DNA of 63,651 nt, filler included, from Sphacelaria rigidula (lineage: Eukaryota), in NCBI GenBank assembly GCA_964200075.2. It is 7 parts of 7 records of this genome, joined end to end, with 100 filler letters (N's around TTAATTAATTAA, not from the genome) between each part and the next. Parts side by side here need not be neighbours in the genome. Positions count along the whole stretch, not along the records: positions 27,325 to 36,331 come from CAXNAA020009532.1; 6 more parts are not named here. One strand, written 5' to 3'. The notes under the pieces were generated by a model. That model was not told the DNA's origin. It did no database searches and saw only the letters and a program-made list of their open reading frames with translations. Made by a program: the position numbers and the translations under genes. This document shows positions 10,466 through 63,651 of this stretch, piece by piece; positions within the stretch are counted from its first letter, which is position 1; the number at the start of each line of letters is the position of its first letter.

Positions 10466-10623
10466 AAGGTACAACACCTACGCCCACGATTCTCTTCGGG
10501 GGAGGGGTGGGCGTACTCATTTGTTGCTTGCCTTAATGGTCACACGACTAAGGCAAGCAACAAATGAGTACGCCCCCCCCCCCCCTCCCCTAGAGAGAAT
10601 CGTGGGCGTGGGTGTTGTACCTT
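10466..10623. mobile_element. Palindrome formed by two C-tailed LINE 3' ends plus inverted flank
   Basis: ~70-bp arms aaggtacaacac..gcgtactcatttgttgcttgcctta / taaggcaagcaacaaatgagtacgc..gtgttgtacctt around a 13-nt loop (10536-10548). Confidence 0.8.
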
Positions 10624-12661: not shown

Positions 12662-12744
12662 AGTATTTAGACCAGTGCGTTGGGTTTTTCCAGGGTGAGC
12701 AGGGTTTAGACCAAACCGTAGTTGGATAGTTGGATAGACCATGT

Positions 12745-12992
12745 GACACTTTCTACGATAGCCCCCCCCAAAAAGTGCATGGTTTTGGGAGGCAAAATCT
12801 TCACGTAAATCGAAATGGGAAAAGCCGAGCACAACGAGCAGCTGGGGAATTCTCACGACTGGGTTCGTTCTAGCCAGTATTGCCAATATGAGGCGCTTCA
12901 TGCAGCCTGAACCCAAGCATCAGCCGCTGTATGCTCATTTTTTTCGTGACACTTTTGGCTGTTTTGGGGGGGGGGCTATCGTAGAAAGTGTC
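12745..12992. mobile_element. MITE with GATAGCCCCCCC TIRs; relatives at 23607-23858 and ~40960-41170
   Basis: TIR gacactttctacgatagcccccccc / ggggggggctatcgtagaaagtgtc. Confidence 0.8.
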
Positions 12993-13961
12993 GCGGTCTA
13001 ACCCAGCAGAACGGTTATCAAGACCGACGGCTACACCAAGACGCCGAGTACTCGGGAAGAGGGACATGGTAATGCGGCGATCCATCGTGTGAACCACGCT
13101 CAGTCCTAGGGTTTCTCAATCCTAGGACGGAGGGGGGGTCTTACGGATCGCGGCGTGGCGTGGTGGATAAGGACAGTACGATGATGGGCCGTCGGTTTCA
13201 AAACGACATTGCGCCCGGAGGGCTGATTGCGGGAACTGGCTGGCACCGCAATCAGGGGTGAAGGGGGTAATCCGCCAAGAGACGGAATACATAAACATGC
13301 CTCTTTACATCTGGTTGGATCCGGTTCTTTCCGAGGATCGATTCAATCAGCGCCCTGGTGTTCACTTCTTGGAAGTGCCAAGTTAACACCACCAAGAGAA
13401 GAAGAGAAATCGAATCGGCCTGAAGCTGCGATCGAGACATCGAGACGTTCGTCGTGGATCGCTCTGCGTTGGACTTTCCCACGTGCTGTGAGCTTACGAT
13501 TGTTTCAAGGAATAACGGTGAGACTGTAAGATGTTTGATTCAAGCAGTGAGCAGATGTAAGGAGGTCGACAGAGTAGTTAGGAACGAACTTGTACACAAT
13601 CAGGATGGTGTATTTGCAACGTGTTCCTGCGTATTCAACACGGTATATATTAATCATCACGCATTTGTCTGCGCATGATTTGACTTAACTAGATGTTTTT
13701 TCGCTCTAGTACATATGGCCAACACTATTCTGTTTGTAAGAGGAAAGCGTGCTTTCTGGCCCGCATCGAAGTTCAAACCACCCCGGGAGTGACGTTTCTC
13801 ATGCCCACTAGGCCCAGTCCCCGCATGGACCGCGCCCCTGACCCTAACACTAACACTAACACTAACACTAACCATAACCCTAGGAATTTTTGAACTCCGA
13901 TTCGGTCCAAAAGCGGTCCTTCCACGCATTACAATATCCCCCCTCCTATCGCAGGACGACT

Positions 13962-14031
13962 ATGCTCCGTCTCGAACGGGATGCTTTGTCAATGGCGAAA
14001 CGACCATACAAGCAACAAATGAGTACGCCTC
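13962..14031 (+). mobile_element. 70-nt retroposed 3' end of C-tailed LINE with 17-bp TSD
   Basis: TSD cctatcgcaggacgact at 13945-13961 and 14032-14048; insert matches the LINE 3' end at ~36222-36289. Confidence 0.85.
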
Positions 14032-14114
14032 CCTATCGCAGGACGACTCATGGATACGGAAGCATTATCTTTCACACTTACATGTATGTGATGCCGCGGA
14101 ATCATTTGTATCAA

Positions 14115-15069: not shown

Positions 15070-16770
15070 AGTCAAGGACGTTTTAGTATAGTAAAGACCA
15101 CTTTTTCACGATAACGCCCTTAGGTCTCTCTCAAAACAAGATGTAGTTTTATACCTTCATTTCGAGTTTGTCTTTGCGATTCTCCATGCTAAGTTTTAAA
15201 TCACAATTCTGATAATTGATCTGAAAAACTGAGAAAAGGCTACTTCTAATGTATCAAAAAATAAAACTTGTTGAAGAGTGTATTTTTGGCTTTTCTTCGT
15301 CATTTTCCCCCCGAAAAGAGAGCTGGGCGGATGTTGACACCTTGGGATGACTTGCCCTACTCGCTGAGACTGTTCCAGAGCACCTTCACGTTTTTCGTAG
15401 GTCACAGTTTCGTTTTTTGTCTAACCTGCATTTTCAATAATAACGGTCAAGTTATCGAAAAGTAGGGAGAAGACTGCCATTTATTTTTACAACGTGATCA
15501 TTTGTTACTGAAAATGCAAGTTTGGCCAAAAACGAAACTGTGACCTACGGAAAACGCACAAGGTGCTCTGGAACGGTCTCAGCGAACAGTGTACCACATA
15601 TTCTGAAATTGTCCATTTAGGCCTATTTGACCCTAAAAGTGGTTTCGCGATAGTATCGCGATAGAAAGAAAGACAATTTTCGCTATCGCGATGCTATCGC
15701 GATGGACAGAAATGATCAGGATTGGCATCGCGATAGCATCGTTTACGGCCAGAGAAAATCAAATTAAGGTAAATTGTCTGGTCCTACATATAACAACGTT
15801 TTCGTGAGATTGAGAGTAGAATGCTGATTGAGAGTGGCTTTGATCATTCGCTTTAACTTGGCCAATTTTTCATTCCGTGTGAGCTTTTCTTTGTTTCTAT
15901 CACTAGCGTGTGCTTACAGCTACACGTCGATATCCTACTCAGGGATATCAAGGGCCTCAGTGGCGAGCTACTAAATGAAGCATATCGGGCCTCATGGAGG
16001 TGCATTCCGAAACTGAAACTATTCAGTCACTAATTAAGTGCTTTTCACTCTCAATCGTATCCTCTACTCTCAATCTCACGAAAACATTGTTATATTTCCT
16101 CGTGAAAATGTTCAATGTCGCCAGTGGTCGTTGCAAGAAACTGTGTGATCCTGTGGCAGATAGTATCGCGATAAAAAATGCAACTTCTCTCTATCGCGAT
16201 AGGGAAATTTAGCCTAAAGGGGCCTGTGACGGTTTAAGAGACAACCAACTAGACTACTGACCAGTCAGTGCTGACTCATCAGTAGTCTAGTTGGTTATCT
16301 CTTAAACCGTCACAAAAGTTAGTCGCTGGCCGTTCCAGAATATGTAGGGGTCCCTCAGCCAGTGGAGCGAAACACTCACCTGGCCCCCTCTTTTCGGGGG
16401 AAAAACGAGAGAGAAGGGCGAAAAATACACTTTTCAACAAGTTTTCTTCTTGAATATATAAGAAGTAGCCAAAAGGTCCAAGAACAGCGTCCATTTTTCC
16501 TTAAAACTCCCCTAAAAAATCGAAAAAACGAAAAAGCGAAAAAAATCACAGTTCAAAGTTCAAGTTCAAAGTTCAAAGTTCAAAGTTCGAAATTCGAAAT
16601 TCAATGTTCAAAGTTCGAAATTCGAAATTCAAAATTCAAAATTCAAAATTCAAAATTCAAAGTTAAAGAATGAAGAAAGCTGGAGCTCTTTATTGTTATC
16701 ATGTACGAGCGATTCTCCACACGAAATTTCGACGTACAACCCTAAAAAACTGACATGCTAAATCCAGATT
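15070..16770. mobile_element. Nested MITE/foldback cluster
   Basis: Inverted repeats ~15265-15345/16370-16445; hairpin 15361-15585; MITE ~15787-16097 (TIR ttttcgtgagattgagagtag, also seen at ~200); hairpin 16225-16314; (TTCRAAA/G)n at 16551-16665. The outer element is homologous to ~25710-26375. Confidence 0.7.
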
Positions 16771-16773
16771 CAA

Positions 16774-18032
16774 TAGGGCTGTGAACTGGACCAGTTTATA
16801 TTGTCGATTATACTAGAACTGGAGTTAAACTGGAGCTGGCGACGAGGTCGCCAGTTTATTCAGTTTATTGAGGTTTGCCTTCACCGGCTGTTTAGATACC
16901 AATTTTTAGTTTAGTGACTTTATGTAAAAGATGCTTACATTATTATGTATAATTTCATTTCACACTTGAGGCTTACACTTTACAGTTGCAGAGGAATATG
17001 GGGGATCAATTGAGACGAAGAGCGCGGCGAAGGCGTCGCCGGAAATTGTTTGCATCAACGACGCGTGAAGCAGCGGTGCACAGCTCCATGCTTCGTCTTC
17101 CGTGTTTCGGACGACTTGTAAAGCATAGGTCTGGCGTTCTGTGGTAGCACCATAGCACATGAAGAACGGGTTTGCCCTGGGCCAGTCACTGGCTGACTAC
17201 TTCAGGTGTTTTTCTGCATTTTTATGTCCCATCTACTTCGTTGATACCTTGTGGTTCTGCAGTTTTGCGTTTTTTCGGCCGTAGCGTGTAGGTCGACGGC
17301 TGGCCCGTCGAATGAGGAGAATGAAGGAAGAAAAAAAGGGAGTTGTGGCTTAGATATTGCGGGGGACGCTTGATGCGGAACTGCGGAACGCCAAACCCCA
17401 GTTACCAATTGCTAATCGCATGATCGAAGAGCATTTTGCACATGATGTGGCACATGTTCTCTACACCTCAAAGTGATGTAATAGAGGACATACATTCGCT
17501 AAGGTTTGCCGTTTCATTGCACGACATCCGTAAACAAAAATGACAAACGGCAACCCGCGACCACAGAATACTAAACACATACCGTGGCTTGCTGTTCAAC
17601 TACATACGTCTTTGTCGGCCCGGACGTGAATAAGTGTGCGCTCTTATCCCCACGTGCTGCCAACCTTGCCTTCCTTGTTCCCATCCTTCGCTCCTCACGG
17701 GGTCTCTTCTGCTGCATGCTACAGAGTAATGGTTTCGATCGCTCACCGCGTTTAACGAGATTTCAATATCTAGGCCTCTTACTATACCTCCTCAATGTAA
17801 GGGGTCACATCTTTTACATTCTTGAAGGGAACACAAGCCAAATACCCCAATTTTTCTTGTCCTCGGTGGCGCTCCTGCAAGGTCCCCTCATCAGCCGGGG
17901 GGGGGGCGTTGAGGCCCGTAACTTCGCCGGTCGCCGCCGACGTTTTTCCAGTTAATCGGCGACATCGATGTACTGGCCGCGCCAGCGGCCAGTTTAAACT
18001 TAACTGACCTGAGCTGCCGGTTCACAGCTCTA
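16774..18032. mobile_element. Non-autonomous hAT DNA transposon (1259 bp)
   Basis: TIRs TAGGGCTGTGAAC / GTTCACAGCTCTA and a perfect 8-bp TSD AGATTCAA (16766-16773, 18033-18040); no intact transposase ORF. Confidence 0.88.
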
Positions 18033-18116
18033 AGATTCAAATGCATTTACACACGTGGACAGATAGCACCCTGTGGAGGGGGTCTACAGGGTTTACGTAC
18101 CCTGCGCAGTGTTTCT

Positions 18117-18216
18117 NNNNNNNNNNNNNNNNNNNNNNNNNNNNNNNNNNNNNNNNNNNNTTAATTAATTAANNNNNNNNNNNNNNNNNNNNNNNNNNNN
18201 NNNNNNNNNNNNNNNN
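18117..18216. other. Artificial contig linker
   Basis: N44-TTAATTAATTAA-N44. Confidence 0.98.
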
Positions 18217-18289
18217 TATCATATTCTACATCTTACATCAGCTATTCGTAAACGTCCTTGGCTCCAGTCTCTCTTTGGTTCCTCCGTTC

Positions 18290-18400
18290 CAGCTTGGGAC
18301 GCTCGAGTTCCCGGCGAGATAGCTCTTTCCAGTCTGCATCTTCGTATCGTACCCGCCGAAAGAAATTCCCATGATCATACACGTGGTGCTTCAGCTCGGC
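18290..18400 (-). pseudogene. Degenerate Tudor-like domain fragment (possibly retroelement-derived)
   Basis: VYDHGNFFRRVRYEDADWKELSRREL resembles the Tudor-like pattern (Y/F)xVxYEDGDxE(E/D)L; isolated, with no gene context. Confidence 0.35.
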
Positions 18401-19469
18401 ACTGCTATAGCCTTTCCAGGAGGTAGCACCTCTGGGCAAAAGCGTCATGAGAACACCGTTTAGTGTTTTTTGCGTGTCCTCCCCAAAGCAATCTCGTTCA
18501 GCGCCGGTTCACACATCGGGATGCGACACACCCAAGGCAAGAGTGTAGGTGAAACAAGGGAGGAAGTAATAGAGGGTACGGTTAGTATGTGTTGAAAGTC
18601 TTGGACTCCGTGAAAATATGGCTCGGTTTTATACCACGTGACGCAGGTCGAAATGTCGTGTACCGGGCGGTAAATTCGGCGTTTCGGCCTCGCGAACTAG
18701 ATAAATGAAACGCCTGTTCAAGCATGATGAGTACAGGCAGCGCAACCGACCAGACCCTCCGGATATCCTACACCCGCACGGTCAAAGAAAACCATCACGA
18801 GCGCCAAACACAATAAAAAACTACCAGAACATGAAACGAAAAATAGTGCAGCTCTACAAAGTAAGACGACGGCGACGCAAATAATAAGACAATCAAAATA
18901 AAATACAAAATTTCCAGAACATGAAATGAAAAATAGTGCAGCTCTACAGAGCAAGACGACGGCGGCGCAAAATTACCAAGTACTCATAATACAATCGAGG
19001 GGCTCAAAAGACAGTTATGGTAGACACGGCACCCGGAGATGCAGACAATATGAGTATGTAAGATGAAAGAAAAGCAAACAAGATCGAAATATAATGGAAG
19101 CTTTACTGCATGTGCATTCCAATAATCCCCATGGCCACAATAAAAGTGCAACCCCGGAAGCAAAGTACATACTGACCATGGCAGGTTGATTGTCCCAATT
19201 CTTTTTGCAACAAACCTACCGGAATAATGTAGAGAATGTCTAGAACACGATCATTGTTGGTAAGGTACAGCGATGATATTATATGGCTGACCAGGTGTAG
19301 GTCAGGCGAAGGTGATACAATGCAGGCGACAATGACAAAACAAAAACTGTGCGATCAGATTGAAGCAAGGTTCATAAAGAACATGAGGACGGAAAATACG
19401 CGCGTGCACATGACAACATGCGATACGATGGCGAGCGAGAAAAGTACAGCCGACAGTAGGCGGTAGAGG

Positions 19470-19663
19470 CAAAAACAACACAACAAGCGGGACAACAACA
19501 GCAAACCAGGGTAGCAGAAAGCACGGTGGAAACAGCAGCAGCAGCAGCAGCAGCAACAACAACATAGAACCACAACAACAACAACAGCAGCAGCAGTAGT
19601 AATAGACAACAGCGACAACAGACAACAGACAACAGACAACAGACAACAGACAACAGACAACAG

Positions 19664-19727
<64 letters not shown>

Positions 19728-20100
19728 GACAGAGCAGCAACAACCAACGACACACAGCAGCTGCGCGGCAGCGACGAACAACAGCACGGAAAAACAGCAC
19801 AGCCGTGCGGCGAGCAGCAGCAACACACAGCGGCGGCACGGCAGAGACGAACAACAGCACAGAAAATCAGCACAGCCGTGCGGCGAGCAGCAGCGACACA
19901 CAGCGGCGGCGCGGCAGCGACGAACAACAGCACGGAAAAACAGCACAGCCATGCGGCGAGCAGCAACACACAGCGGCGGCACGGCAGCGACGAACAGCAG
20001 CACGGAAAAACAGCACAGCCGTGCGGCGAGCAGCAGCAACACACAGCGGCGGCACGGCAGCGACGAAAACCACAACAACAGACAACAACGACGCGGCTGC
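19470..20100. repeat. (CAA)n/(CAG)n/(CAACAGA)n microsatellites followed by a ~72-bp minisatellite (~4 units)
   Basis: Unit cagcgacgaacaacagcacggaaaaacagcacagccgtgcggcgagcagcagcaacacacagcggcggcacgg repeated over 19769-20066. Confidence 0.9.
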
Positions 20101-20849
20101 ACAGCTTCCGCAGCTGTCTGGAGCCTGATGTCCCGAAACGCCCCGACGTAATTGCAGGCCCTCTGGTTCGTTGAACTCGTTCAATGCTCGTTCGACCGTA
20201 TTACCTTCCATTAGACTATATTGGCTAGGTCATTTCGCTTTGAACGTCTGGTTACCTCCGGCATATCGTAGGGCGCGACACTGTTGAGAAACTGGTCCAG
20301 ATCACCCCATGATCTATTTGTGCATGAGTACGGTATAATTATGCAGCGGTCGGAAAGACGAAGCACAGGGCACCCGCGGGGCAAAACCAGGGAGGAACAA
20401 AGGGTACCACTGGACAAGAACAAACTACATAGCCCATGTTCAACTTCTTATGCTCAACGTACGAATGGTAAGTAGACGGCAGAGCGAAAGAGTGCGAAGA
20501 GCCGAGGCAGCGGACCGTCATAGTACGCTCACTGTACATGCGATTCAAACATCCCAGTGACACTGAGTCGTGAACTTCAAAAGCACTCTCTACTACATGC
20601 TAAATGATGTTGCAGGTAAGATACGCTGTTGAAACTACAATTTGTGAACAGGCACACTATTTACTTTATATAAAAGAAGTAACATTTTACCTCATCCGAC
20701 CCACACGCCAGAAAACCCTCCCCTCCGAAAGTTTGTGGTCGGAGCATGCCAGTGTTGACTCTACACAAGCAAGGATTGGACACCATGTCATGGTACGATA
20801 CTCACCACCTAGGTAGGAAGGTGCCAGTTCAGTGGGCACCTGGGCTAGC

Positions 20850-23529: not shown

Positions 23530-23855
23530 GTATGTTGTCGCAGGAGGACGGGAAGACGTTGGTTGAAATGGTGAAAAATGCAGATATTTTTATTTTATTT
23601 GTAGCACGACTAATGCCGAGATAGCCCCCCCACAAAAGTGCACGGGAGACCGTCCGACAAAACGGTTGCAATCCCACTATTGGGCTCATTTGCAGCAATG
23701 CCGCCCACATGAAAGGCTTGTAGCAGTCCGAAATCAGCTATAACGCCCAAATAGGTCGCGTCGTGAAACACGAAACCAGCTCTAACGGCATTAATGATCA
23801 TTGCCTCCGTGCACATTTTTGGCCGGTTTGGGGGGGGGGGCTATCTCGGCAGCAG

Positions 23856-24148
23856 TCGCACTTTGAATGAACCTCTCCCCTTCCCCGGGACGATTCCGTG
23901 GTCTCAAGCGATCAACCAATCTCTCCCCGATATCCGCTTGGCATTTTGGTCTCGCGGATTGGGTCAGCACGCCCGCACCGCGTCAACTCGTGTAAAACAA
24001 ACTCAGTCAACTACTTCGTTTACTCACGTTCTCACGCTTTCCACGGTGGAAATAAGATACTACGAAGAAAAAACCCAACGTATCGGGAATCGAACCGTCG
24101 TTCTCTTCACCCTAATGGCGACGGTCGGACCATTACACCACTGGGGCG
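23856..24148 (-). mobile_element. tRNA-derived SINE family B, full-length copy
   Basis: Minus-strand head cgccccagTGGTGTAATGG (A box)...GGTTCGATTCC (B box), followed by a body shared with three other copies. Confidence 0.75.
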
Positions 24149-25831
24149 TGGCGACAACAGAGCATAGGTACAACGGGGTTTCTTGCCCGTGCGAGAGAGC
24201 GTGGGTTGTACGGTTGAGCACCGGTGGGCGCACGTCAAGAAAAATGACAACCAAGAGACGCGATTGTTGTGCAAGGCAATGTGCTCATACATATCATATA
24301 CATAGCATAGCAAGGCTGAAATATTTGACGTCGGTACGCGTGTGTTGGAACTCTGTCTGATACGCCCGCTATCGGTACTTTCGCTTAGTATCTCGATATC
24401 GCGAAACGATATGTTTGTACTTGACATGAACGGGGGAGGCTGCCGAGGCCTGTGGCAAGCTCACTTTCCATATGCCGATGTTCATACCAACATGATGTGC
24501 ACTCAGGAGTATGAGGTCGCCCAAATATCGTGAACCGCACAGGCTGATAGATGAAAACGGTGCACGGCAAGCATACTGCGATGAACCGGGAAGCGCAAAC
24601 ACACGAAGATGGCAGCGGTGGGTTTGTGCGTACATGGAGATAAATGGGGGGCTCTGGTGTGGAGGTGGATGGCGTCTGCGGATCTCTCCGATTCCCAGAG
24701 GCCGCGTGAAGAGGCGGGGAGGTGATCAGCCTCAAATGTTCTGCAGGAGCGGCCGGAAGCGTTCCGGAAACAAATTCGGGACTCCCTCAACCTCATGGCG
24801 GTAGTCCAGTTTCCACCACGAAAACCAGCTAGGCTGTTTATGTACAACAGAGAGATAGAGCAATCGAAGTTTACGGCATCGCCGAAGCAATGCAGTATGT
24901 GCAAGGGATCATTCACGCCGGCAGGTTTGGTCACCGCCAAATCGCCGACCTGGATAAAGCAACGGCGGGAAGAATTGGTCGGCAGTGTGACATTCAGTGT
25001 TTTCAGCACGGAAGGTAGCATTTGGCAGGCCAGGCGTTTGTTGACATAGATCTTTTTGGAGCCATGAACGTTCCCATGCTACCGCGCGAGGTAGGGCTCT
25101 TCCAATCGTCCTCGTGTAGTCGTCTTCTAATGTTGGTAATCTCACCAAAAGCAGTACTCGCTTTGTGGATAGTACGCCCCGATTCTAATCGCTTAAAAAA
25201 AGGAATGGTCGATTCATGCTAGGTTGGTGGATGTGATGCTCGATACGAGCTGGGCCAGCCTAGGAGCGGATGTGTAGTTTGCAGGCCCATTTTCAGCTCA
25301 ATTTTTAGAGTTGGATCTTAAACTTTGGTGCGGACAATGAAACGATTCTAATAGAAAAACGTATGCATTGATCCAAAGCCTTCTGTTCTTCATGAGTTGA
25401 TGACATTTTACTGCAGCCTGAAAACTGATTATTGCCTCTCATTTATGAAAAAAAAAAAACAGCTTCGGGTCCATGTAAACTTTGTTTTGTTATCACCTAC
25501 TTGTTGTTCATACCACAGTTTAAGGTCCAACTCCAAAAATTGAGCGGAGAATGGGCCGTTTGAAAACCGGGCCAGCCTAAGTTTGGAACAGTATCTTGCA
25601 GGCCGCTTACCGCCCCAGGTTTGGTACTTGCTTATCGGGTTTTTGTGTGGGACCTCGCTAGGGCATAATAAAATAAAAAACGTTGGCCGGGTTGATTTTT
25701 CTTTTACTGGTCGAGGACGTTTGAGTATGGTAAGGACCGTTTTTTCACGAGAACGCCCTAATCTCTCTCTCAAAAAGAAAGTGAAGGCCATTGTTTTTTC
25801 TTCAGCGAGTCATCCTACGATAGGGTGGGGG

Positions 25832-25904
25832 GGGGGGGCGTACTCTTTTGTTGCTTGCCTTAGTCGTTTGACCATTGACCACGCACCCCTTTCGAGACGG
25901 AGCA
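25832..25904 (-). mobile_element. ~70-nt retroposed 3' end of C-tailed LINE with 17-bp TSD
   Basis: TSD ctacgatagggtggggg at 25815-25831 and 25905-25921. Confidence 0.85.
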
Positions 25905-27224
25905 CTACGATAGGGTGGGGGTGGGGGATATTTGATTGCACGAATAAAAAGGCTCACAAGTGTGTCAGACACTGCCGCACTCGCGGGGCGCTTGTGTTTG
26001 GTTCAAAACGGTGTCTATCGGTATGAATGAGCGTTATTTATTTATAACAAGCTCTTGGAATTTCGTGCAAAAAGTGGCCCAAAATACCCCCCACGTATCG
26101 TACGATGACTCCAGCATGTCTTTGCGGTTCTCCATGCTCAGTTTTACATCACGATTCGAGAAATTGAGCTGAAAAACTGAGGTAAGGTCCAAGAGCGAGG
26201 TTCGTTTTCCCTCAAAACTTTACTGAACAAACGAAAAAAATGAAAAATGAGGAGTGAAAAATTAAAAATTAAGAAAACACTGTTTTTTTTCAAATATGTT
26301 TTGCACTAGCGGTTCTCCACACGAAATTTCAACGCACGACTCTCAAAAATTGGGACCCGATATTCAGATCTAATATATTTCGTGCCTCTGCTCGTAATCT
26401 ATTAACTTTCGAATGAAAGCTTATGCGCGCCATATCTCGAGGTAGAAAACAACGTAAATGAAGATGAGGATATCTATCGTTTCCCCGTGCTCCAGGGAAT
26501 GTCCACACCAAAAATGGCCATCCTCTGTATACATCGTCCGGGGTTTCATGTAGACTTTAGTATAAACGCCACATCCGCACGGTATAGGAATTACTAGACA
26601 TGGGGTTCAATCAACGAGAAAAAAATGGCCACGACTTTTGGGCCGATGAGCACCTCCCCCTTGGTTAGACGGTTACAACATACGGGTCACGGCCCAACTC
26701 GTCTGTATCGATGAGATATTTCTTTGAGAGCTTGAAGCCGTTTCTAGGCTGGACCAACCTGTTGTTGTCTCTTTTTGTTTTTACATAATGATCGAATACT
26801 ATTTATTGTTATTATTATTTGTCTGACATCATTTTTTATTACTAATATTCTTCATATATAATTGCTTTAGTTTTAGGCTCAAAAAAACTCCAGCCACACG
26901 TGTCTGCAAGGTTGCGCTGAATCTGGCTTGCACAACTGGCAATAATACGGCAGCACGGTAGCATTTGGAACGGCGGGTGTGCTATTTTTTTTCTTCTGGC
27001 CCTACTCCTTGTGATATCGGGATCTCGGGAAGGCATCCCACCCTCTCTACCGTCGCTTGGAGGAATTACCAACTGGGTGGTGGACCGGGCAACTTGTCGA
27101 CCGTACGTCAGGGTAATAGGCGGGTTGCATTCGCACGAGAGGTGAGGGAGCTGTGGCCAGAAACGATCTGTGACGCTAGCCAGCGCTAGAATGACAGCGT
27201 CAATATGCTTGTTCGAGGGACTCC

Positions 27225-27324: not shown

Positions 27325-27463
27325 GTGGTCAATGGTCAAACGACTAAGGCAAGCAACGAATAAGTACGCCCCCCCCCGACGTCCCCATTTCGGTGGGGGT
27401 TACTCACTTGTTTCTTGCCTTAGTCGTTCGACCCTTGACCACGCGTCCCTTCCGAGACAGAGG
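27325..27463. mobile_element. Tail-to-tail pair of C-tailed LINE 3' ends
   Basis: 27325-27377 (+) ends ...gcaacgaataagtacgccccccccc; 27395-27463 is a minus-strand copy. Confidence 0.8.
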
Positions 27464-27975
27464 AGGTTCGCGTCGGATGGCAACGACACTATAAAGCATG
27501 TCATTCACTGCGCATGCTAGGCAACCGGGTTACCGTTTCCCCCCCCCCGATTGCGCTTTTTGCGGTTACCATGATAGTCGAGCTAGATCATTTTGTGTGG
27601 GGTGGAGAATTTTATTTCCGCGCAGAGGGGGATGATCGTACCACGTAGGGTTCTAATGGTGAGACACCCATGAGGCAGTAGAATACGTGGCTGTCTATGG
27701 AAGATGCGATGCCAAAGAATGAAGCAACTCATTGTAGGCTGTCATGCAAATGCAAGATAATCAGTAGGCTTTGGGCCAAATAATCTTGGCAGGATGCAGC
27801 TCACCCTTCATGCGACTCGTCGAACACATCACGGCGTTTTGCGCTTGACGATTGATTGCGAGCCTGGTTCGGTAAAAATAGCCGTAAGGCTACAGCATGC
27901 AAGATCATGCGTACCCCGTCCCCCCCCCTCCCCCCCTCCTCGGTCGCCGACCTTCCTTCATAATACCTCGCGTAG

Positions 27976-31200: not shown

Positions 31201-33382
31201 GTATAGTTTTCTCAAGTTTCTCTCGCGCTTTTTTGTTCCCTATCTCTCCCGTTGTTGATGAAGGAGCGGACTAGCACAGCAACAATAATAGACTCTTGTC
31301 AAGTAAGGCCGGGATAGCCCCCTTCCCCCCCAAACCAGTCCCAAACCTGCCGCGGAGAAGATTACCACACAGCGCATGATAGCTGGTTTATGACTTTATG
31401 AAGCCCCTCATACGGGCGACATTGGCGAGAACGGTCCCGAACATCGAAGTTCCCAGCTACTCGGTGTGCTCGGCTTTTGTCAGTTTGATTTACATGTAGA
31501 TTATGCCTTGTCAAGCCAGCGACTTATGTGGGGGAGGCTATCGCGGTATGAATCAGGCTTCCTTAATTTTTTGGTCATCCTTCTAACCCCTCTTCTCCCT
31601 TCCCTCAGGACGACTCGAGACGTGGTTCTTCATTGGTGTCCACGGTACGGGAAGAGTTTACACCAAGTCGGCGGCGAAAATCTCATGGATGAAAACTCTT
31701 CGCTTTTTGGTGTAGGCCGTCATACCCTAGCACTACCTTTATCGGATATTCCAGGGAGCTCAGAGTCCCAATGCCTCTCCTAGCGTGTGCAGCGCTTTAC
31801 GTTGCTCAAGTCGGCGCCGTAGAAGCTACTTCGAGTCTACAAAAAAGTACATGTTGCCTAGTGCACTTCACGCATTCCCCTTGCCCGAGGGTACTCGGTC
31901 TGCCTGGTGTTGTGTTGGGGTTAGGGTTAGCTTTGGGGTTATGATTAGCGTTTTGGTTTGACGAAAAATATGTGTTCAACCATTGAGTTTTGTTGCTGGG
32001 TTCACATGAAACGGCCTCTCATGATATCTGCTTTGCCGAAGATCGCGGGTCCCCAAGCTGAAGGGCAAGCCTAGGTATACTATGTTCGAGTCAAGCAATC
32101 TCGGGATATGTACGTGTGAGAAGGCCCGACGACGGACCCGCCGTCTTACACTACGTTGACCCACAGAATCAGAAAAACCTCATGCTACCTCCTCGGCTTT
32201 GCCGTTCGTAATCAGATCTCCGGAACTACCCACGCCAAAGCGAGGCACCCCGCTGTACCGTACTGTACCAACTCACGCCGTGCTGTATGACATGAATGAT
32301 GTTGATGTGCCGGCGCTCCAATTTATGATTGGCGTATTTGCAAGTCTAAGTTTGGGACTAAGGATGAAAAAATCTCGAAAGACCGGTGTTTCAGCTATGG
32401 ATCGCCCCTATCGCTGATGCCGTCTCGGACACGATTTGTTCGGACACGATGTTTGTCCGGACAGTACGTAGTGGGCATACGGCGGGAGAAAACTGCCGGG
32501 AACACCATGGATTGTGAACGACTGTTCATTCCCATCCTCGTTCCTAGGATTGTGGGAGGATTCGATAGAGTCAAGGGATCAAGTCATCTCTCGCCTGACA
32601 CCAACGTGTCGATTGCTTTTGATGGGGAGCTGGATCAGCACTCCAGCTTCCCGTCGACTCTCGTCGTCCATATTTCTGTGCCTCACGCGCCCAAAATCGC
32701 TAGAAACGGCGGGAATGAGTCTATTTTCAAAACGAGCGTATCCATCGAGATCCGAATCCGCGACCTTTCGTTCCAGCTCAAAATTGCTGTATCATCTAGT
32801 TTTACACCATTGTGGCGCGGCGGAGGTTTGAACGCCCTTTTCACACCTCAATATTTTTTATCAGCAGTAGTGCCTCTGTATTACTCCTTTAGGGCTTGTG
32901 GTTGAGAGTCCATGCCCAAATAGTGTGCTTCCCGAATAGCTTCCACGGCTTTCCCCCCTTCTTTCTTCTGCACTGCGTTTTTACCTGAAGCCTACCGGTC
33001 ATTTCTCGTTGATTTCTTGCTTGTTACCATGATGCTTGTTTCGAGCGGGATCGGTTGTTTGTCGTGTTTTCCCTCCCCCCTACCCTTCTCCTTTTCCCCC
33101 TGTTCTTTCTCTTCCTTTTCTGTTTGGTCTCGTCCTCTTTTTGTACGTTTTACTCTGTCCGTTCTATCCTTTCTTGGTCTTTCCCTTCTCTCGTGTTTAC
33201 GTTGCCAACTCTTTCCGTTTTGTTGACCGTGGATACTGTATGTATATCGTGTGACCATGGCCGGGTCCCTGGAGGACACGTTAACGCGCGACCAACCATT
33301 AACCTCATCAATCAATGACATCGATCAGTCGAATATACGTTCGTCATCTTGTTTGTTTCTCGCCTCATGCGTCGTGATCCAG

Positions 33383-34995: not shown

Positions 34996-35876
34996 AACCA
35001 ATAAGATATACGTACGTGTCTTAAGGTGATCCAAGAAATATTCTTAGAACGTGAAATGATGCAACGGAATCGTTTTTGACGTCGAACGTACCGGAAAAAG
35101 TCGTTTCTACCATATACTAAAGTCAAGTGGTCGTGAGTTTGTACCTTGCAAGCTCACTTCATCGCACAGAAGCGCAAATGTTCACGCCGAGTTTTCGGGC
35201 TAGACTCAGAAACGTTGCAGACGTATACCATGGGCCATCACGAAACTTGCGATGGACGGCGTTTCTCCACGAGGTATCCGCGGTCCCGGAAGGGCATGTG
35301 AGAGGCATGTGACTCCCCAGGATACTGGGACCCTCGATAACCGGTGATTTGAAAAATTTCGGTGAGATCACGATTCGCTACGTAGCAGGTCTTGGTATAC
35401 GACAAGGTCGCCATGGTCGTTTCCAGGAGTTTTGTTGGATAATCCAGCGCTGCCGATACACAACCCTGTCGTTTTCGGTCCCTTGAGCTGAACGATGTGT
35501 TCACGTGTTTCCCCGTCGTGTTTTCATCTTACTTCGCTTGTGTTCGTCGTCACTTTTACTTGTCCCGCCTCGTGTCTCATGTCGTACAAGTGCTGTAGTG
35601 GGGAAGCCGAGCAACATGTCTCACCATGTTCCCTCGGGGCTTCCACGCTTATTCTGCTGTGTAGAAACGGCACACTCCCATGCCAAACAAACCACATATC
35701 ATATATCAACATGTTGTGCTGTATCAATCAATGTAAACATCAATGCAGCCTCATGAAGGATTGGTGTCTAAAGTGTGCAGCCATGGCCAAGGTTACGCCT
35801 CGATATCACTGTTTCAGCCGATCCTTCAATTTTTTCACGCGTGGAAACCTCCCGACAGCCCTCTCCCCCCGCCACA

Positions 35877-36313
35877 GACCTGTACCTGCCAGGAAGAAGG
35901 AGATATACAGTAGTACTGTAGTCGTGTGGAGGAGGAAGTAGATGCACAAAACTGCCTCTGTGGCAAAGCAATAGAAAGGAGAAGCCATGTAGTGGCAGAA
36001 TGTGAACTATACAAGGAGGAACGGGACGTGAACGAAGGTGGCATCAAATCGTTTGATGCATTAGACAGTAGCAAGAAAACGATGGTTATACTAGGAGATA
36101 GATGGCCGCAGACGGCGAAACAGGACGGGGATAAGATATAGTAAAATGTTTTTGCGCGATGTATGGAAGAAGCGTAATGAGCGCCGGAATGTTGAAGGTG
36201 TCTTTATTAGGAGTAGGAACGGTGCTTCGTCTGGAAAGGGATGCGTTGTCAATGGTCAAACGACTAAGGCAAGCAACGAATGAGTACGCACACCCCACCC
36301 CCCCCCCCCCCCC
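35877..36313 (+). mobile_element. 5'-truncated non-LTR retrotransposon (LINE): ORF C-terminus with CCHC knuckle, ends in C-run
   Basis: EEEVDAQNCLCGKAIERRSHVVAECELYKEERDV (C-x-C-x8-H-x4-C), then after a frameshift VWKKRNE...GCVVNGQTTKASNE*; TGA is followed directly by GTACGC and a C tract. Confidence 0.8.
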
Positions 36314-36331
36314 GGGAAGGACGCCCTCTCC

Positions 36332-36431: not shown

Positions 36432-36903
36432 GTCCCGGCATTGTAGGGATGCGAGGTCAATGGTCTGATGACTATGGCATGCATGATCATGAGTACACCC
36501 AACTGGGTACCGGTGTGCCAGTTACGGGAACAGGGGCGCGGTGCGGTATTCGGCTCGCAAAAAATCATGATCAAAAATAAAAGGCACAACAACTACTGAT
36601 GTGTGCCACGTCCAGTGTATTCGACTCCCATGGACCATGACGACTACAACCAGAATCTAGTTTTTTCAATTCAACGTCCGGCAAACAAACCACATTATTA
36701 ACATGCTACAATACAACAAACACAAGGAAACACTGTCACCGTGAAGGAGGATACCCACATACCCCACATCCCCACCCATCCCCTTGTGTTTTAGTTGCAT
36801 GCATCGGATGCATTGGTACACACGATTCCCCTTGCAGAGTTGTGCGCAAGGTACTCAGAAAAAAAGGGACTGAAAACACCCACATCCTCTCTTTCTCTCT
36901 CAC

Positions 36904-40046: not shown

Positions 40047-42262
40047 ACCGTTGATGGAAAAATGACGATTTACATTTGACGTTTTCTTGGACAAGATATG
40101 GCTGATTTTCTGCAACTGTTCACACCCTGGACAAAAGAACACACAGCCAAAAAGTGTACTGCGTACAGTATCGACTATTGCGCCTATTGCAATAGATAAT
40201 AGATTATATACTGTACGCAGTACATTTTTTTACAATAGAATAAATATGTCGGATGACAACACACACAGCCTGTTTGGCAGCATTGATGGAAATGGAACGT
40301 GTTGTCATCAGTTCCGTACAGGATCAACACCACAGTGTTCGAAACGAACGAAAATTCGAAAAATGGAGGGCAAGCGGACACGTTCGAGAGCAGTAAGGGG
40401 GGAGGTGCGACTGTTGATGATGCAGCCGACCAAAACAGTGCACCCGTTCCAGTTCAAGTGTACTAATGTGACAGATTCGTGCACCGAAGTCGAAGTGATC
40501 TTTTTCCCGGTGACGAACGCTCGCGTAAGAAACTTTGTACTGTTTTTCGCGAGTTACAAAAGGCTCAACACATGCACAGAGCGGACGAGATGTGGTGCTA
40601 CCGGCGTGGTATAGCCGTTCCGGAGGTGCTTTCGGTAAACTCCAGAAAAAGAGGGGGAAGCAAAAACGAAGACGGATGAACATAGTAACCTGTAGAGAAG
40701 TAAAACAATAAAAATGAAGACGCCGAGCTAACAACTGGTATCAATTTCGAGAAATCAGCGCGGAAGGCCCCGTGCGGCTTTAGACAAGGAGATTGTACAT
40801 CACTATTCCTTTTTCTTTCGTCTATTTGCTTATTTTTCTTCCTCATCTACTACTCCCTCGTAAATTATATTCTGTTTCCCCCTCCTTCCCTTCCTCCCTC
40901 CCTCCCTCCCTTCCATTTATTTGTCGAGCGTGTCATATTATTAATCGTTAGTTTCTCGAAAGGAGGCAAAATCTACTCGTGGAGTGAAATGACAAAAGCC
41001 GAGCATACCGAGCAGCTGGCAACTCCCACGCTTGGGATCGTTTTCGTCAATGTTGCCCATATGAGGCGCTCCATGCAGTATGAAACCCGTTATCATGCGC
41101 TGTATGGTCATTTTTTTCGTGACAATTTTGGGGTTGGCCTAGGGGACGCGGGGGCTATCGCGGCATGATCCTACAGTACAGTAGCCGTGGTTGCATCGAC
41201 AGCAGCACATGTATGTGGTCCACAGATACATAGCTGCTGCTGGACAGCTGAAGGGCGTGGCGAATTTGGTGGGCTTGTGTACGCCCTGTAGAGTGCATAT
41301 TGGGTGTAGCTATGATTTCGTCGCATCCATGAATCATTAAAAATATCTCATCTGCTTCGCTGTCGGATGGGGTCAGTATCTTATGTGATGTAGAAGAATT
41401 TGATAGCGTGCCCTTTCTGTTTAATTATCCCTATTGCTTGTGTACGCGAGCAGGATTGTGGAAGAACTGTGAGGAATTTGAACCTCGGGGGTGCTATCTT
41501 CAGTAGTTTCACTTACGTTGTGGGTTTCTTGTATACGACCGGTCTAAAAGCCGTATGATGAAGAACTGACGGTTGTGTTTCGTTCCTTTTCTCGTTCGGC
41601 CTAAAAATCTCAACGACATATGATGAGAAAAGATGGTCGTGTGGGCATTTTATTCTCCAATGCACGAACACATCAAACAATTATCGGAAGCCCGCTGCGT
41701 CTCCGCCAACACTGTAATGTAGTTCGCCTACCAACTGAAGCAAGCACGCATCATCTGATGATGTTGGCGAGCCGATTCTCGCGGAGGGGGTCTAGGGTGG
41801 CTTTCAAACCTGTGGCAGCAGCGCACAATAACCCCGTGTCGGGATCAAGTTCTCGCATGATTGCTTGTCCCGGGCAATCCGATCTCAAAAACCTACAGAC
41901 CGGCACTGCACTGTACGGTGCAGTACATTGCAGTGCCGTAGTTGGAGTTCAGTTGTAGCATCAGACACGTTGGCTAACTCTTCTAACCGTAGGCTGCTTG
42001 CAAACTCCACGATAGCAATTGAGGCAACTCCAGCCAACGTGTTCTGTAGGATCTGGTGGTTGATTATGATACTGCTGGATTAGAAGCATCGAGTGTCTAC
42101 CATCAGACAAGCGTGCTGTGTTCGACTCATCAAAATGTGGCTCCGATGAAAAAAATGCGGGCACAGCACGAAGATGTGCCCGGTGATCTCAGCTTTTTCA
42201 CTTTCACCCCTCAGTATTTTCAACGTTTTCGCCACATGGTAATAATAACATCCATCTCGCCC

Positions 42263-45538: not shown

Positions 45539-45584
45539 ACTCAAAGTCCGCGCGATAGAACCGGGGGCGAAGGGGTGGTGCTTA

Positions 45585-46016
45585 GCCTACTCATTTGTTG
45601 CTTGCCTTAGTCGTTCGACCATTGACCACGCATCCCTTTCGAGACGGAGCAAGGTGAGCAAATCGGAAACACTCCTGGAAGGAAACTCGAGAATGGTGGC
45701 ATAAGACGAATAAGGGATAGAACAGACGGAGCAAACTAAATAACAAGAAACATGACAAGGAAGGAGACGGGAGGGGGGGGGGGGGCGGGAGGAGGAGTAT
45801 TCATTTGTGCTTGCCTTGGTCGTTTGGCCATTGACCACGCATTCCTGTCGAGAAGGACCACCGCTCCTACTCCTTATAGAGACATCTCCAACATTTGGAT
45901 GCTCATTACGTTTTTTCATACGTTACACAATAATATTTTACATATCTCATCCCCTCTCTGTTTCACCGTCGGTGGCTACCACTCATCTCCTAGGGGGGGG
46001 GGGGGGGGGGGAGGAG
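45585..46016 (-). mobile_element. Two further C-tailed LINE 3' fragments (45585-45651; 45797-45992 flanked by G-runs on both sides)
   Basis: Minus-strand translation KKRNEHPNVGDVSIRSRSGGPSRQECVVNGQTTKAS matches the 35877-36313 copy. Confidence 0.8.
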
Positions 46017-46747: not shown

Positions 46748-47609
46748 CTGTGAAGCCATGTCAAGAGACAAGGGCAACATTCATAGAGCGCTGCGCAAAT
46801 CAGACGTGCTAGTTCACACATTTGGGGCTATTCTAGGAGAATACAACATTCAGAGTCATTCTACGTTAGGGGGGGGGGGAGGGGGGGCATTTCTTGCACG
46901 AAATTCCACTTCAGACCGTTGGTGAAAGCAGCAACGGTTGTACCAACGCGCTTGTTGCCGACAACTAACGCTCATGAATACTGCTCGACACTATCTTCAC
47001 CCAACCACAAGCGCACCGCGAGTGTGTTAGACTGTCTGTTCACACTTATGAGCCTTTTTTATCGTGGAATCAGCCCCCCACCCACCCTCCCCCCTATCGT
47101 AGCATGACCCCAGAGAAAATCCCGATGAAGCCTAAGGACACAATTTCTCCTGCAGACATTGTGCTCTCCTACTATAGACGGTTTACGGCTAAATATAAGC
47201 TTGTAAATAATTCGCCGTATCTGAAATCTGCGGGAAGAACGTTCCAGCTGTAGTTTGACGTTCGCCGTTAGACGAGTAGCGGACTGCTACATGGGGGGAG
47301 GCCGGACGTGGGAAACAACCGGTACCAGGAACCATCTGTCCACTGCAGCGTGTGGTGATATCATCAGGGATGACGCGAGACGACTCGAGGCGATAGATGA
47401 TGCTGACCCGACAAATTCACAAAAACAATAGATTGGACACCTTCTAGGTTTTGTGGGGAACGATGCGAACATGAAAACAAATATTTCACACAACGTCAAA
47501 TTTCAGCAAACTCGCGTCACGTAACCGCACCGAAAGCATTGCCGTTAATGGAGCAATATGAATTTCCTGCACTGGGCCAACGGCATGAAAAGGACCCACC
47601 TATACTCAC

Positions 47610-48908: not shown

Positions 48909-51065
48909 CTGCGCAAAATTCAACGTGTTGGCATCATTAGCCGCGCGACCGGATGGGATGGTTTGGGCTGCACCACCCATGGTCAAACACTACTTCGTTT
49001 GATGGCGACCCTTCGACCGTGGGCAAGTGGGCGGCAATTGCAGGCGGCTCAACTAGCAAGCGGACGCTATGATGTCGATCTCACAACTGGACCACATTCG
49101 TGCGAAAGCGATTGACACATGAAAGTGTTGTGCATTCTTTGCTACGGTAAATGTCTAGAAATGCAAGCGCGGAAATGGTGGGAAAATGACTCTGCTACTC
49201 GCGACTGAAGGCCACTCCTTTCAGCAGTCTTCTGCGGCGGAAATCTGGGAATATGGAAATTATTGGAAATTAATAGCCAAAACCTCCGCAAAACTTTCTT
49301 GTTCCAGCGAGTAAACTTCGTTTATCCAAACTATGGCAAAACGTTTATATTGACGATGCCGCAGCCCTAAAGCGACGGCAACGTGCGTTGCCTTGGTACT
49401 TACTCATCATATAAGCACAAGTAAACAACCCTGCAGCTCAAAACTTCTCATAAGTGCTATGAGTACTCAAGCAGGTGGTGGCAGAGGCTGACGCCTTCCG
49501 ACATTAGTCGGGTGTGTTGGATCGGAGAGCTTGTAGCAGGAAAAGTACAGGGGCACGTGAGTGCAGAAACGATAGTTGGATATTGTAAACACGGCGCTTG
49601 CGGCCAACATGCACTGACACACAACCATTAGACTGGTGATAGTCCAAGCAGGTCGATGATAGTACCCAGGAGATTATAAGGATAGCTGCTGTAGTACCTA
49701 GTTACAGCCAGCACGAGGCTATGCTGGGCACGCATGATGGGTCAGGCAGGCGGCATCGACCACGAGCAGAGTAACAAGCATGTTATTTGTGCCTATGCTA
49801 TTTAAGGTTGGTTGTCATCACCAAAATGATAAATACGCCTGGACAGCGAAAGGCCGTCGGAAGTCTAAATGTAGGGGAACACAATGACCGTTTTGATAGC
49901 TGCGATTGGTCAGAAAGGTCGCTCCGCTCCTCTCGGGCCTCGGTCCTGACCTATACTTATCCGTGGGAAATTTTCAAACACACATGGTTAACTTGGTGAG
50001 CTCTTCGGCTGTCCTGCGAACAGGCCCAAACGCCCCTGTCAACAATCATCCCCCCAGCCTCCTGGAAACCCCTTAATGGCCCTAGACGGTCAGCCTTTGA
50101 CACCGTTCTGAGGCGACGCTCGCCGTCTAAGGATTCACGGAGCCAGAAAGCGAGGCGAAGGGAAATTCAAGAGTCCAAAAGCAGCATGTTGATTGGTCGC
50201 CACGACATGAAGCGGCGGGGCAATATCGCGGCGATCAATCAACATGCTGCTTTTGGACGCTTGTCTTACTCTTTGCTTCGTTTATTGATCCCGTTAAAAT
50301 CGGCTTCAAGGCCGTGTCTTACCTGTAGCACATCAGTTTTCGATCGAAAAAGTGCGGTGGAAAACAAAAATCCCTTGCTGATCGGTCGTGATTTCAACCA
50401 TCTTCAAAATAAACGATAATGGTTGAAATTATGACATATCAGATCGGGATTTTTGTTTGCCACCGCACAATTCCGATCGAAAACGTTAGTGCGAAGACAC
50501 GCCCTAAAAAGCGACCTCACGTGGACAATTCAAAAATGATTTCGTGTTTTCACGCGCTGAGAAAACGTCAGGACGTGCGTTTTTTCTTCCGGTATTTCCT
50601 GTCGGTGGACGCACACCACACTGGCGTATATGCCCCTGCTACGGTCTTTAATTGAAGGCTCGGAAAAACGCGAAGTAGGGCAAGCACAGGAATCGTGAAA
50701 ATGGGCATCCTAAAATCGTGCGCACAAACAAGAATGGTCGGCCCGCTTGCTTTCCGTTTTCGTATCAACGACGATTTGTCATCGGGTATCCACCTCTATG
50801 CGCGCAGCTCAAATCGGTCCAAGCAAGTGCCTGAGTACGTAACACATGATTGTATACTCAGCCAGCTGCAAGAAAACGTTGCAGCTGTTTCAAGAAATCG
50901 CCCCGCGGCAGATGTTCAACTCAGTACCCTAAAATCATTAGCAAACCGCCAGCATGGTTCGATAGATGACCATCACGCAGATAATGGGCGACTTTCGTTA
51001 CAAGGCATCATGTTTCATAGACGGAGGTCTGACACATATTTACGGCACGAGTACATGTAACTTAC

Positions 51066-54645: not shown

Positions 54646-55956
54646 AAAATTGGGTTGCTTTATTCGGTCGAACCCCCACTTCCAGAGACAGCCACAGCTT
54701 TTACACTGCCTCATGGGTGTCGGGGGGGGGGGGGGGGGGGGGGGGTTACCAGGGGGCGATATACAACATACGCCACTACAGTACTGTAGATACCACGTTA
54801 TACCAAAAATAGACGAAACTCCATCAACCGGGGGGTAAAAACCTAGCACCACAGGGAACACGCATCAATAGGTGAAAAACAAATTGACAAGAAGGGTGAA
54901 GTCAGATTCTCCGATTTGCACGTGAGCAACAGTCTCTCAAAAAACCATAAAGTGAATACTTCGCTCGAGGACAGCAACAGGTTGCGTCATTTCCTGAAAT
55001 CACCACCACACCCTTGACGTTCGATTTGATTGACAAGTAGAGACTGACCAAGCCTTCCATTCAAGCAAGCGAGCTGCTCGATACCGTTAGACTTCAAAAT
55101 CCATGTCAACTCGCAAGCGATGAACACAGCCTTGGGAACCTGCACACTGCTTCGAGCGATGTACAAGAAAAGTCGGACGCAGGTGAGAGAAATCCTGCTG
55201 ACGTGATGACCAGCAAAAAAAAACAAGAAATGGCTCGAGTCGCGGCATCACCTGGACATCACCTCAACCCCCACGGAAAAAAAGGTTTAGGACAATATCA
55301 AGTCACTCAACGAGTACTCGAGGGCATCACGTTACTCCTGCAGGTGCAGCAGTTACCGTTATCCCGTTACTCCTCATCTTGAGCGCCGTAGTCACCAAGA
55401 CTATTTGCCTCGCATCCCTACAAAGCTGTGACGGAGCACGCTGGATTTTCGCCGAACAAGGCTCGCACTCAATCACCAGGCGCGAAGCACCGTATATGTA
55501 TTCGGCGTGTTGCATGAAGGGTGGGCAGCATCCTGGTAAGATTGTTCTGCCCGAAGCCTACTGATTATCTTGCATATGGATGACAGCCTCCGATGAGTTG
55601 CTTTATTTTCTGGCATCGCCACTTCCAGAGAGAGACCCATGGGTGTCCCACTTAACACCACGTAGTACGATCATACCCTTTGCGCGGAGTTCTGGTTCTC
55701 CAACCCGCACAGTAGTATTTACCTCGACCAATATCATGGTTACCGCAAGAAAAAAAAAGGCGAAAAAACCCGCGGTAACCTGGTTGCCTAGATCACGCAG
55801 TGAGTGGCGTGTTCTACAGCGCCCGTGCCAACCGACGCCAACTCTCCAAAATAGGGGGAGGGGGGAGGTCAGAGATATGTGAATTCAGAGAGGGAGAGAC
55901 AGGGATATTTATGTCTTGTTTCGAGACACTGCAGTTTTTTCCCACTGTTGACTCAC

Positions 55957-61352: not shown

Positions 61353-61662
61353 AACAAGTGTGCCCAAAATGATTGATTCCACCCGTAGACATAATATAGT
61401 ACCGGTCCCCCCCCCACCCCCCACCCCCCACCCAAGCCCCCCGCCCACTCTACTCTTGGCGTTCTTGCGTTCATTTCCACACCCTACACAAAATACATGG
61501 TCAATAATTGCATCACACAAAAAATGTACTGCGTAAAGTATGGACCCATTACAACCAATGTCGGCCCGACAACAGTTGCAATGGGCCTATACTTTACGCA
61601 GTACATTTTTGGTCTGTTGCAACTTTTGACGACAAATTGTCCAGGGTGTCCGAATTTCCCAC

Positions 61663-63084: not shown

Positions 63085-63651
63085 CTGCGCACCAGTCGAA
63101 AACCAAAGGAGCGGTCTACATACGCATGTTCATGTATGGGGACGCAGCAAACCGTGTTGCTGTACGACACAGCCGGCGGTTGGTTGCGGTGGGTGGAGTA
63201 GCGCACTTTCAGGGTATGCTACATTTCCATCTAGTTGCAGTATCGAGTATTGCAGCCTTCGTGGGGCATCGACGCCGAATAAATAATACTGGAATATGTC
63301 AATTGAAGTATACCCGAAATACTGGGCCATCTTCATGGCCTACCCTAAACTTGTTTGGCCACCCATAAATCGTCACACATCCTGAACAAAATATGGTCAA
63401 CAGATGCAATAGGCAAATATGTACTGGATATGGTATGGACCTATTGCAACTATCGATGGCCGACAACAGTTGCAATACGTCTATACTTCACCCAGCACAC
63501 TCCGTCTATTGCATCTATTGACCATCTATTGTTCAGGGTGTGAATCGTTAGAACGGTACAGCAAAAAAAAAAAAAAAACGAAAAGAGAGGCACCGAACAC
63601 ACACAAAAACACCCAAAGAAAGAAAACGTTAAGACAAAGCCCCTACTTTTT

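Follow-up and report, generated by a model that had tools for sequence, protein, structure and literature searches.

A LINE fragment with almost no 3′ UTR

The question raised by positions 35877–36313 is how a LINE comes to end next to a run of C's instead of a poly(A) tail, and whether this run is a tail that came with the element or the target into which it was inserted. The locus lies in a stretch of 63,651 nucleotides from the brown alga Sphacelaria rigidula (hereafter the window), which consists of seven contig pieces of about 9 kb each with N spacers in between, has a GC content of 45–56% and is without long ORFs. The fragment in question (copy C, 35877–36288, plus strand) is the 5′-truncated and decayed C-terminus of a LINE ORF, with 72–74% amino acid identity to brown-algal proteins; stops and frameshifts are present in the ORF fragment (35877–36289 region), and a CX1CX8HX4C (CCHC) knuckle is found at about 35953–36003. 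As an earlier note on this DNA had claimed, the ORF ends in ...TKASNE, followed by TGA (36281–36283), then by GTACGC and by C-rich sequence: GTACG occupies 36284–36288, and the C-rich stretch behind it (36289–36319, plus strand) starts with CACACCCCA and includes C16 at 36298–36313. The claim of almost no 3′ UTR likewise holds, since only about 5 nt (GTACG) separate the stop codon from the element end.

A 75-residue fragment of copy C matches 14 database proteins, of which the sole organism-named one is from Sphacelaria rigidula (72% identity). Walking upstream with a 340-residue relative led to the full-length proteins P0015 (1360 residues) and P0017 (1328 residues), in which Pfam recognised Exo_endo_phos (residues 170–392 and 142–383, respectively) and RVT_1 (residues 740–989 and 710–959). 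The architecture of an N-terminal region, an APE-type endonuclease, a reverse transcriptase (RT) and a CCHC knuckle within a single ORF is thus read from these database relatives, the window itself holding 3′ fragments only. It agrees with the non-LTR assignment made in the earlier note, the RT and the APE-type endonuclease being linked in both full-length relatives. The relatives from brown algae have one ORF of about 1,350 residues; among them, Ectocarpus proteins are 48–64% identical to the C-terminal 340 residues of the family, and one of these ends in ...TTASNK. Since an ...ASN(K/N) C-terminus is found in 8 of the 24 relatives compared, the ORF extends to 5 nt from the element end, and the 3′ UTR is essentially GTACG.

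A PDB sequence search with P0015 matched its RT region distantly to L1 ORF2p (E about 1e-20) and, also distantly, to the R2 RT, matches which do not discriminate clades; it returned no endonuclease match, and the ESM Atlas gave generic EN/RT clusters only. The conserved region that precedes the endonuclease (about 140–170 residues; residues 1–165 in P0015) has no Pfam match and may fulfil an ORF1-like role in this element, which has a single ORF. Two further proteins, P0001 and P0003, share an unrelated C-terminal string, CLLYTSPSPRD..., which we take to be translated sequencing adaptor, their C-termini presumably not being biological.

In the window itself, a Pfam search of 64 of the 70 ORFs of at least 120 residues matched host exons only, namely those of an RNA 3′-phosphate cyclase (RTC) and a histone deacetylase, and found no RT. 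The RTC exon is 81–85% identical to Ectocarpus, Pylaiella, Laminaria, Ascophyllum and Choristocarpus proteins over the aligned part (33% of the query), which points to a brown-algal source. Rfam gave no match over the whole window. We have also observed tandem and low-complexity repeats at 18800–20200, with a strong AT skew (0.37 in 18001–20000) and overlapping ORFs in all frames, and many self-complementary (foldback) repeats of 80–280 bp (15361–15585, 16225–16314, 25284–25557, 40149–40230, 50148–50283, 50336–50484, 61500–61630 and 63376–63542).

C-rich sequence behind the 3′ ends

A BLASTN search of the window with 35877–36331 recovered all nine places at which the same 3′ end had been claimed to occur, in four of the seven contigs (contigs 2, 3, 4 and 6). 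The matches lie at 10498–10535 (minus strand), 10535–10590 (plus), 13963–14028 (plus), 25823–25905 (minus), 27325–27376 (plus), 27401–27458 (minus), 35877–36331, 45563–45651 (minus) and 45770–45993 (minus), and a weak tenth match was seen at 36445–36496. With a tail profile, 12 3′ ends were detected in the window, nine of them LINE-type and three from a non-autonomous family described below (the N family); no further tail with E<1 was found there, the next match (5150–5184) having an E value of 8.7.

The numbers of C's in the 20 nt after the GTAC end are 12, 17, 9, 16, 14, 7, 17, 11, 17, 6, 17 and 4 for the 12 tails. They average 12.25, the background being 4.85 (s.d. 2.18), and when 12 windows were drawn at random 200,000 times, no draw had a mean as high. 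At least nine C's per 20 nt are found after 9 of the 12 tails, and after 8 of the 9 LINE-type ones, as compared with 5.2% of background windows; a C run of at least 9 nt lies within 30 nt in 6/12 tails, and the flanks are not clearly C-rich at three (7, 6 and 4 C's of 20). The association of the 3′ ends with C tracts, which the earlier note had called nearly constant, is therefore real and far beyond chance. An A run behind the 3′ end, as in an L1-like poly(A) tail, was looked for at the 12 tails of the window and found at none, in line with the claimed lack of poly(A).

Target-site duplications

Whether the C's are tail or target can be read from the target-site duplications (TSDs). We have aligned 45–48 nt from each side of nine junction pairs (eight copies, copy D having two 5′ ends) and ranked the alignment scores against those of 3,000 random flank pairs (Pemp). 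Clear TSDs of 21–25 bp were found at three of the nine pairs, belonging to three of the eight copies (A, B and E). Copy A (13963–14027, plus strand; BLASTN and tail profile) is a tail-only unit of about 66 nt that starts with TGCTCCGTCTCG. Its TSD of 21–25 bp (upstream 13942–13961, plus strand; downstream 14028–14048; Pemp 0.0013) opens with the C-rich portion of the motif 'C-run + CTATCGCAGGACGACT', and the last base of the copy overlaps the downstream TSD by 1 nt, as the string match places it. Copy B (25838–25904, minus strand; BLASTN and tail profile), a tail-only unit of 67 nt that begins at its 5′ end as copy A does, has a TSD of 23 bp, C5AC5ACCCTATCGTAG (upstream 25905–25927, minus strand; downstream 25815–25837; Pemp 0.0007); one extra C (25838), part of a C12 run, stands before the downstream TSD. 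Copy E (45795–45992, minus strand; BLASTN), a 5′-truncated LINE 3′ part of 198 nt, has a TSD of 22 bp that reads CTCCT + C19 upstream (45993–46016, minus strand) and CTCCTCCCG + C13 downstream (45773–45794), with a Pemp of 0.0007 that is flattering because this TSD is of low complexity. The G runs that had been noticed on both sides of 45797–45992 are present, and are explained by the C tract that this TSD carries at each end of the copy.

All three clear TSDs begin 1–2 nt past GTAC, with the C-rich stretch first, and in copies A and B the duplication runs on past this stretch into unique sequence. Since the C tract lies inside the duplication in 3/3 cases, it is duplicated target sequence and not an added tail. 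Insertion at C tracts, which the earlier note had proposed, is thus supported by the TSDs of all three resolvable copies. No TSD was found in the 45–48-nt flanks of four copies, which account for five of the nine junction pairs: copy D (45585–45651, minus strand; a tail unit followed by moderately C-rich sequence) with either 5′ end, the tail at 27462, and two N copies (27463 and 55847). A fourth, partial TSD is likewise C-rich.

The copies are not all alike in this respect, as copy C deviates. Its probable upstream TSD (35854–35866, plus strand) matches 36320–36331, where the contig end truncates the downstream copy, at 12 of 13 positions (Pemp 0.019), and starts with GACAGCCC, not with a C run. 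Between GTACG and this TSD lie 31 C-rich nucleotides (CACACCCCA + C16 + GGGAAG), and, being outside the probable TSD, they indicate that some C tract can travel with the RNA or be added.

These 31 nucleotides also bear on the alternative of a genuine oligo(C) tail, a counterpart of poly(A) that the RNA carries or acquires, in which case the insertion sites would not be C-specific and the 'TSDs' would be older tails or products of slippage. A curated Ectocarpus table that lists '(C)n 3′' as an element feature (PMC12477816) would fit this as well. Against it, the upstream C tracts of the three clear copies all adjoin unique sequence (CTATCGCAGGACGACT, CTATCGTAG and CTCCT) and have no LINE tail upstream of them; in addition, the upstream and downstream C runs are of similar length (11 versus 12 in copy B, 19 versus 13 in copy E). 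We consider the tail explanation unlikely, and keep to the C tract as the target.

A and B both lie in one short motif (C run + CTATCGYAGGAYGACT), and a sequence preference wider than the C tract is therefore possible. That A and B are merely copies of one composite repeat was considered and rejected: their TSD extents differ (that of A includes GACGACT), and the flanks are otherwise without similarity.

Paired tails

Two places in the window carry tails in pairs. The first is a palindrome of 158 bp (10466–10623; self-comparison) with 83% arm identity, at the centre of which stand two head-to-head tail fragments of 30–40 nt (10511–10540, minus strand; 10533–10573, plus strand). The arms include the C-rich flanks and about 35 nt more of flanking sequence, the flanks being inverted copies of each other. 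Since the arms form one palindrome together with their flanks, they represent one event and not two independent ones, and the structure suggests that an insertion site was duplicated in inverted orientation, not that two insertions took place. An origin of the pair by double priming, at the two nicks, was rejected, given that the flanks are inverted, not direct, repeats.

In the second pair (27325–27462), two tails (27325–27369, plus strand; 27462–27399, minus strand) are arranged tail-to-tail, separated by C9-gacgtccccatttcggt-G5, so that they face each other and each has a C run next to it when read in its own sense direction. In a head-to-head junction, the tail at 27462 meets the 5′ end of an N copy (27463).

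A 3′ module shared with non-autonomous partners

The N family consists of non-coding elements of about 480 bp, the last 65–75 nt of which resemble the LINE tail. One copy (27463–27916, plus strand; tail profile) has a LINE-like 3′ tail followed by CCCGT-C9-T-C7. The second (55365–55847, minus strand; tail profile) has a LINE-like tail of about 75 nt, with C-rich sequence upstream of its 5′ end and no C run past its 3′ end. A third 3′ end (36432–36498, plus strand; BLASTN and tail profile) is cut by the contig start and has a flank that is not C-rich, and a 5′ part of the family is found at 8859–9008 (plus strand; self-comparison), preceded by CCCCCCGACCCCC.

The last 65–75 nt are thus common to the LINE and the N family, and in the LINE this stretch encodes the last 21 or so residues. 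Copies A, B and D start at the identical base (TGCTCCGTCTCG; 13963, 25904 and 45651), the tail at 27462 starts within about 3 nt of it, and the same base is where the similarity between the LINE and the N family begins. With the tail-only copies starting at the similarity boundary, the last 65–75 nt act as a module of their own, one that at the same time encodes protein. The tail-only units of about 66 nt are either a very small non-autonomous retroposon or the outcome of a 5′-truncation hot spot at the edge of the shared module.

The module contains a 5-bp hairpin, TGGTC-N4-GACTA, in all 11 aligned tails (92.7% of cells paired). Its single compensatory change is equalled by 80 of 500 shuffles and so does not go beyond sequence conservation, and a longer fold closing the 68-nt unit has no compensatory pairs. 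The eel elements UnaL2 and UnaSINE1 are a 'stringent' LINE–SINE pair with a common 3′ stem-loop. As in that pair, the autonomous and non-autonomous elements are alike at the 3′ end, here in the last 65–75 nt only; in contrast to it, the module is also coding here and the hairpin covariation is not significant.

C/G homopolymers in the window

The window contains 19 C/G homopolymers of at least 8 nt, as compared with 0.65 expected from a first-order Markov model of the whole window. Seven are at RTE-X-like ends or TSDs, four more lie in MITE-like inverted repeats, and eight are unexplained; a fifth MITE-associated homopolymer, at 25827, is counted among the seven. The unexplained ones include G24 at 54722–54745 and G10 at 17897–17906, and A runs are likewise above expectation in the window.

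Such an excess could also arise if the runs were sequencing or assembly artefacts, for example from poly-G reads, and their association with the 3′ ends spurious. Yet the runs are internal to contigs, have unique sequence around them and occur in matching TSD pairs, and it is the sense-strand flank past the 3′ end that is C-rich in 9 of the 12 tails. An independent, curated annotation of the long-read era gives the same feature in Ectocarpus (PMC12477816), and we regard an artefact as hardly credible.

MITE-like elements of about 250–300 bp with long terminal inverted repeats are found at 12737–13000, 23606–23862, 25815–26100, 31300–31560, 40962–41175 and 46850–47105. At their ends, a C/G homopolymer of 7–13 nt stands beside a common core, CTATCG(T/C)(A/G)G, and the flanks past the core are inverted repeats too. 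CTATCGTAG occurs five times in the window (0.5 expected), and the insertion points of LINE copies A and B coincide exactly with the homopolymer of MITE-like ends. No note matching these elements was found in the Ectocarpus TE table (PMC12477816).

The true target might then be the repeat motif 'homopolymer + CTATCG(T/C)(A/G)G' of these local MITE-like ends, with C richness as a by-product. Insertion of A and B at the identical position of the motif would be so explained, and a similar string follows copy D; copies E and C, the tails c2a/b and c4a, and the N copy ending at 27916, however, adjoin C-rich sequence without the motif, and the flanks of A and B show no other similarity by BLAST. This makes the motif a very improbable target, less so than an artefact but more so than a carried oligo(C) tail, and the C tract itself remains the preferred one.

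Relation to known elements

Mammalian L1 elements have a poly(A) tail, nick at TTTT/AA and prime on a T tract. The present family resembles L1 in its APE endonuclease, in the target-primed reverse transcription that we propose for it, and in a TSD that starts with the homopolymer ending the element, so that the junction is ambiguous. It is unlike L1 in having C/G for A/T, no long added tail, a 3′ UTR of about 5 nt and one ORF.

Insertion at simple repeats is a feature shared with the APE-type LINEs Waldo, Mino, Kibi, Koshi and Dong, the clades of which presumably differ from that of our family. In the section of a 2013 review on simple-repeat-targeting LINEs (PMC3812793), their targets are given as ACAY, AC, TC, TTC and TAA, respectively, and the list there has no homopolymer C/G target. 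In the Sphacelaria family, a C tract opens all three clear TSDs, but GACAGCCC opens the probable one of copy C, and 3/12 flanks are not C-rich.

The closest description is found in another brown alga. According to the RTE-X passages of a 2025 Genome Biology paper (PMC12477816), RTE-X is the most abundant LINE group in Ectocarpus, with elements of the RTEX-1/-2_Ec32 type being very abundant. Its curated table (supplementary file 1) describes RTEX-1_Ec32 as 'single EN-RT ORF; (C)n 3′' with a 'C-rich' TSD, and RTEX-2_Ec32 by '(C)n termini/TSD'. Two non-autonomous elements, RTEX-N1_Ec32 (607 bp) and RTEX-N2_Ec32 (188 bp), share 60–100 bp of 3′ sequence with these LINEs and also have C-rich TSDs, and the supplementary table gives RTEX-N1 as '60 bp 3′ end 83%' similar to RTEX-1/-2_Ec32 (PMC12477816). 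In the main text of that paper, the term 'C-rich' is absent, and its four RTE-X/TSD passages are silent on the tail; a literature search for a poly-C LINE tail gave nothing beyond this record. The C-type end and the C-rich sites are therefore already on record for the Ectocarpus relatives, even if the record is no more than a supplementary table entry.

The Sphacelaria LINE agrees with RTEX-1/-2_Ec32 in its single EN-RT ORF, its (C)n 3′ end without poly(A), its C-rich TSDs and its brown-algal host, and the N family, like RTEX-N1/-N2_Ec32, shares about 60 bp of the LINE 3′ end. The host is a different one, Sphacelaria, and identity with RTEX-1/-2, compared by table description, is inferred. Membership in RTE-X is likewise inferred from architecture, tail, TSD type, partners, Ectocarpus homologues and the published note on relatives. 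As for the interpretation in the earlier note as a whole, a non-LTR element with APE and RT, a 3′ UTR of about 5 nt, no poly(A) and insertion into C tracts has stood up, whereas the novelty that it implied has not, given the '(C)n 3′' end and 'C-rich' TSDs on record for the Ectocarpus RTE-X LINEs and their partners (PMC12477816).

Proposed mechanism and implications

Taken together, we read these copies, with a probability of roughly 0.7, as 5′-truncated copies of a brown-algal RTE-X-type non-LTR retrotransposon for which the C tract is the target, priming occurs on the G strand and partners are mobilised via the 3′ module. The first nick, made by the endonuclease, would fall on the bottom strand, where the C tract has its 5′ edge. 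Two sites (A and B) have AATAT^CCCCC as their top strand, which makes the presumed nicked strand GGGGG^ATATT; when the element's sense strand is drawn on top, the first nick would lie immediately left of the C tract, and the priming strand would end in G's. The freed G-rich 3′ end would then prime reverse transcription at the RNA 3′ terminus, perhaps aided by a few C's that the RNA has acquired by read-through into the C-rich flank of the parent copy, and a second nick would follow some 22 bp further downstream. As its recognition signal the reverse transcriptase would use the conserved 3′ module, by which partner elements could also be mobilised, and each insertion would duplicate the C tract and so make a new target.

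Priming by the G strand through pairing with an oligo(C) RNA end would fit the geometry of the junctions, although the specificity of the endonuclease would by itself produce this pattern; in the papers searched, we found no discussion of endonuclease choice versus G:C annealing as the setter of the target. A bolder version, which we hold as doubtful but less so than any of the rival explanations above, is that brown-algal RTE-X is the first LINE lineage to depend on pairing between G and C homopolymers for its target-primed reverse transcription: the primer, a G tract, would anneal to a few C's at the end of an RNA that otherwise stops 5 nt past its stop codon. With each insertion duplicating a C-rich target of roughly 22 bp, the family would make its own landing sites, and these would largely explain the roughly 30-fold excess of C/G homopolymers in these genomes.

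For LINE biology, the family shows that an APE-type element can dispense with both poly(A) and a 3′ UTR: it lands at C tracts, and the final 21 or so codons provide its cis-acting end. For the annotation of brown-algal genomes, it accounts for many C-flanked fragments of about 66 nt and for some of the G/C homopolymers.
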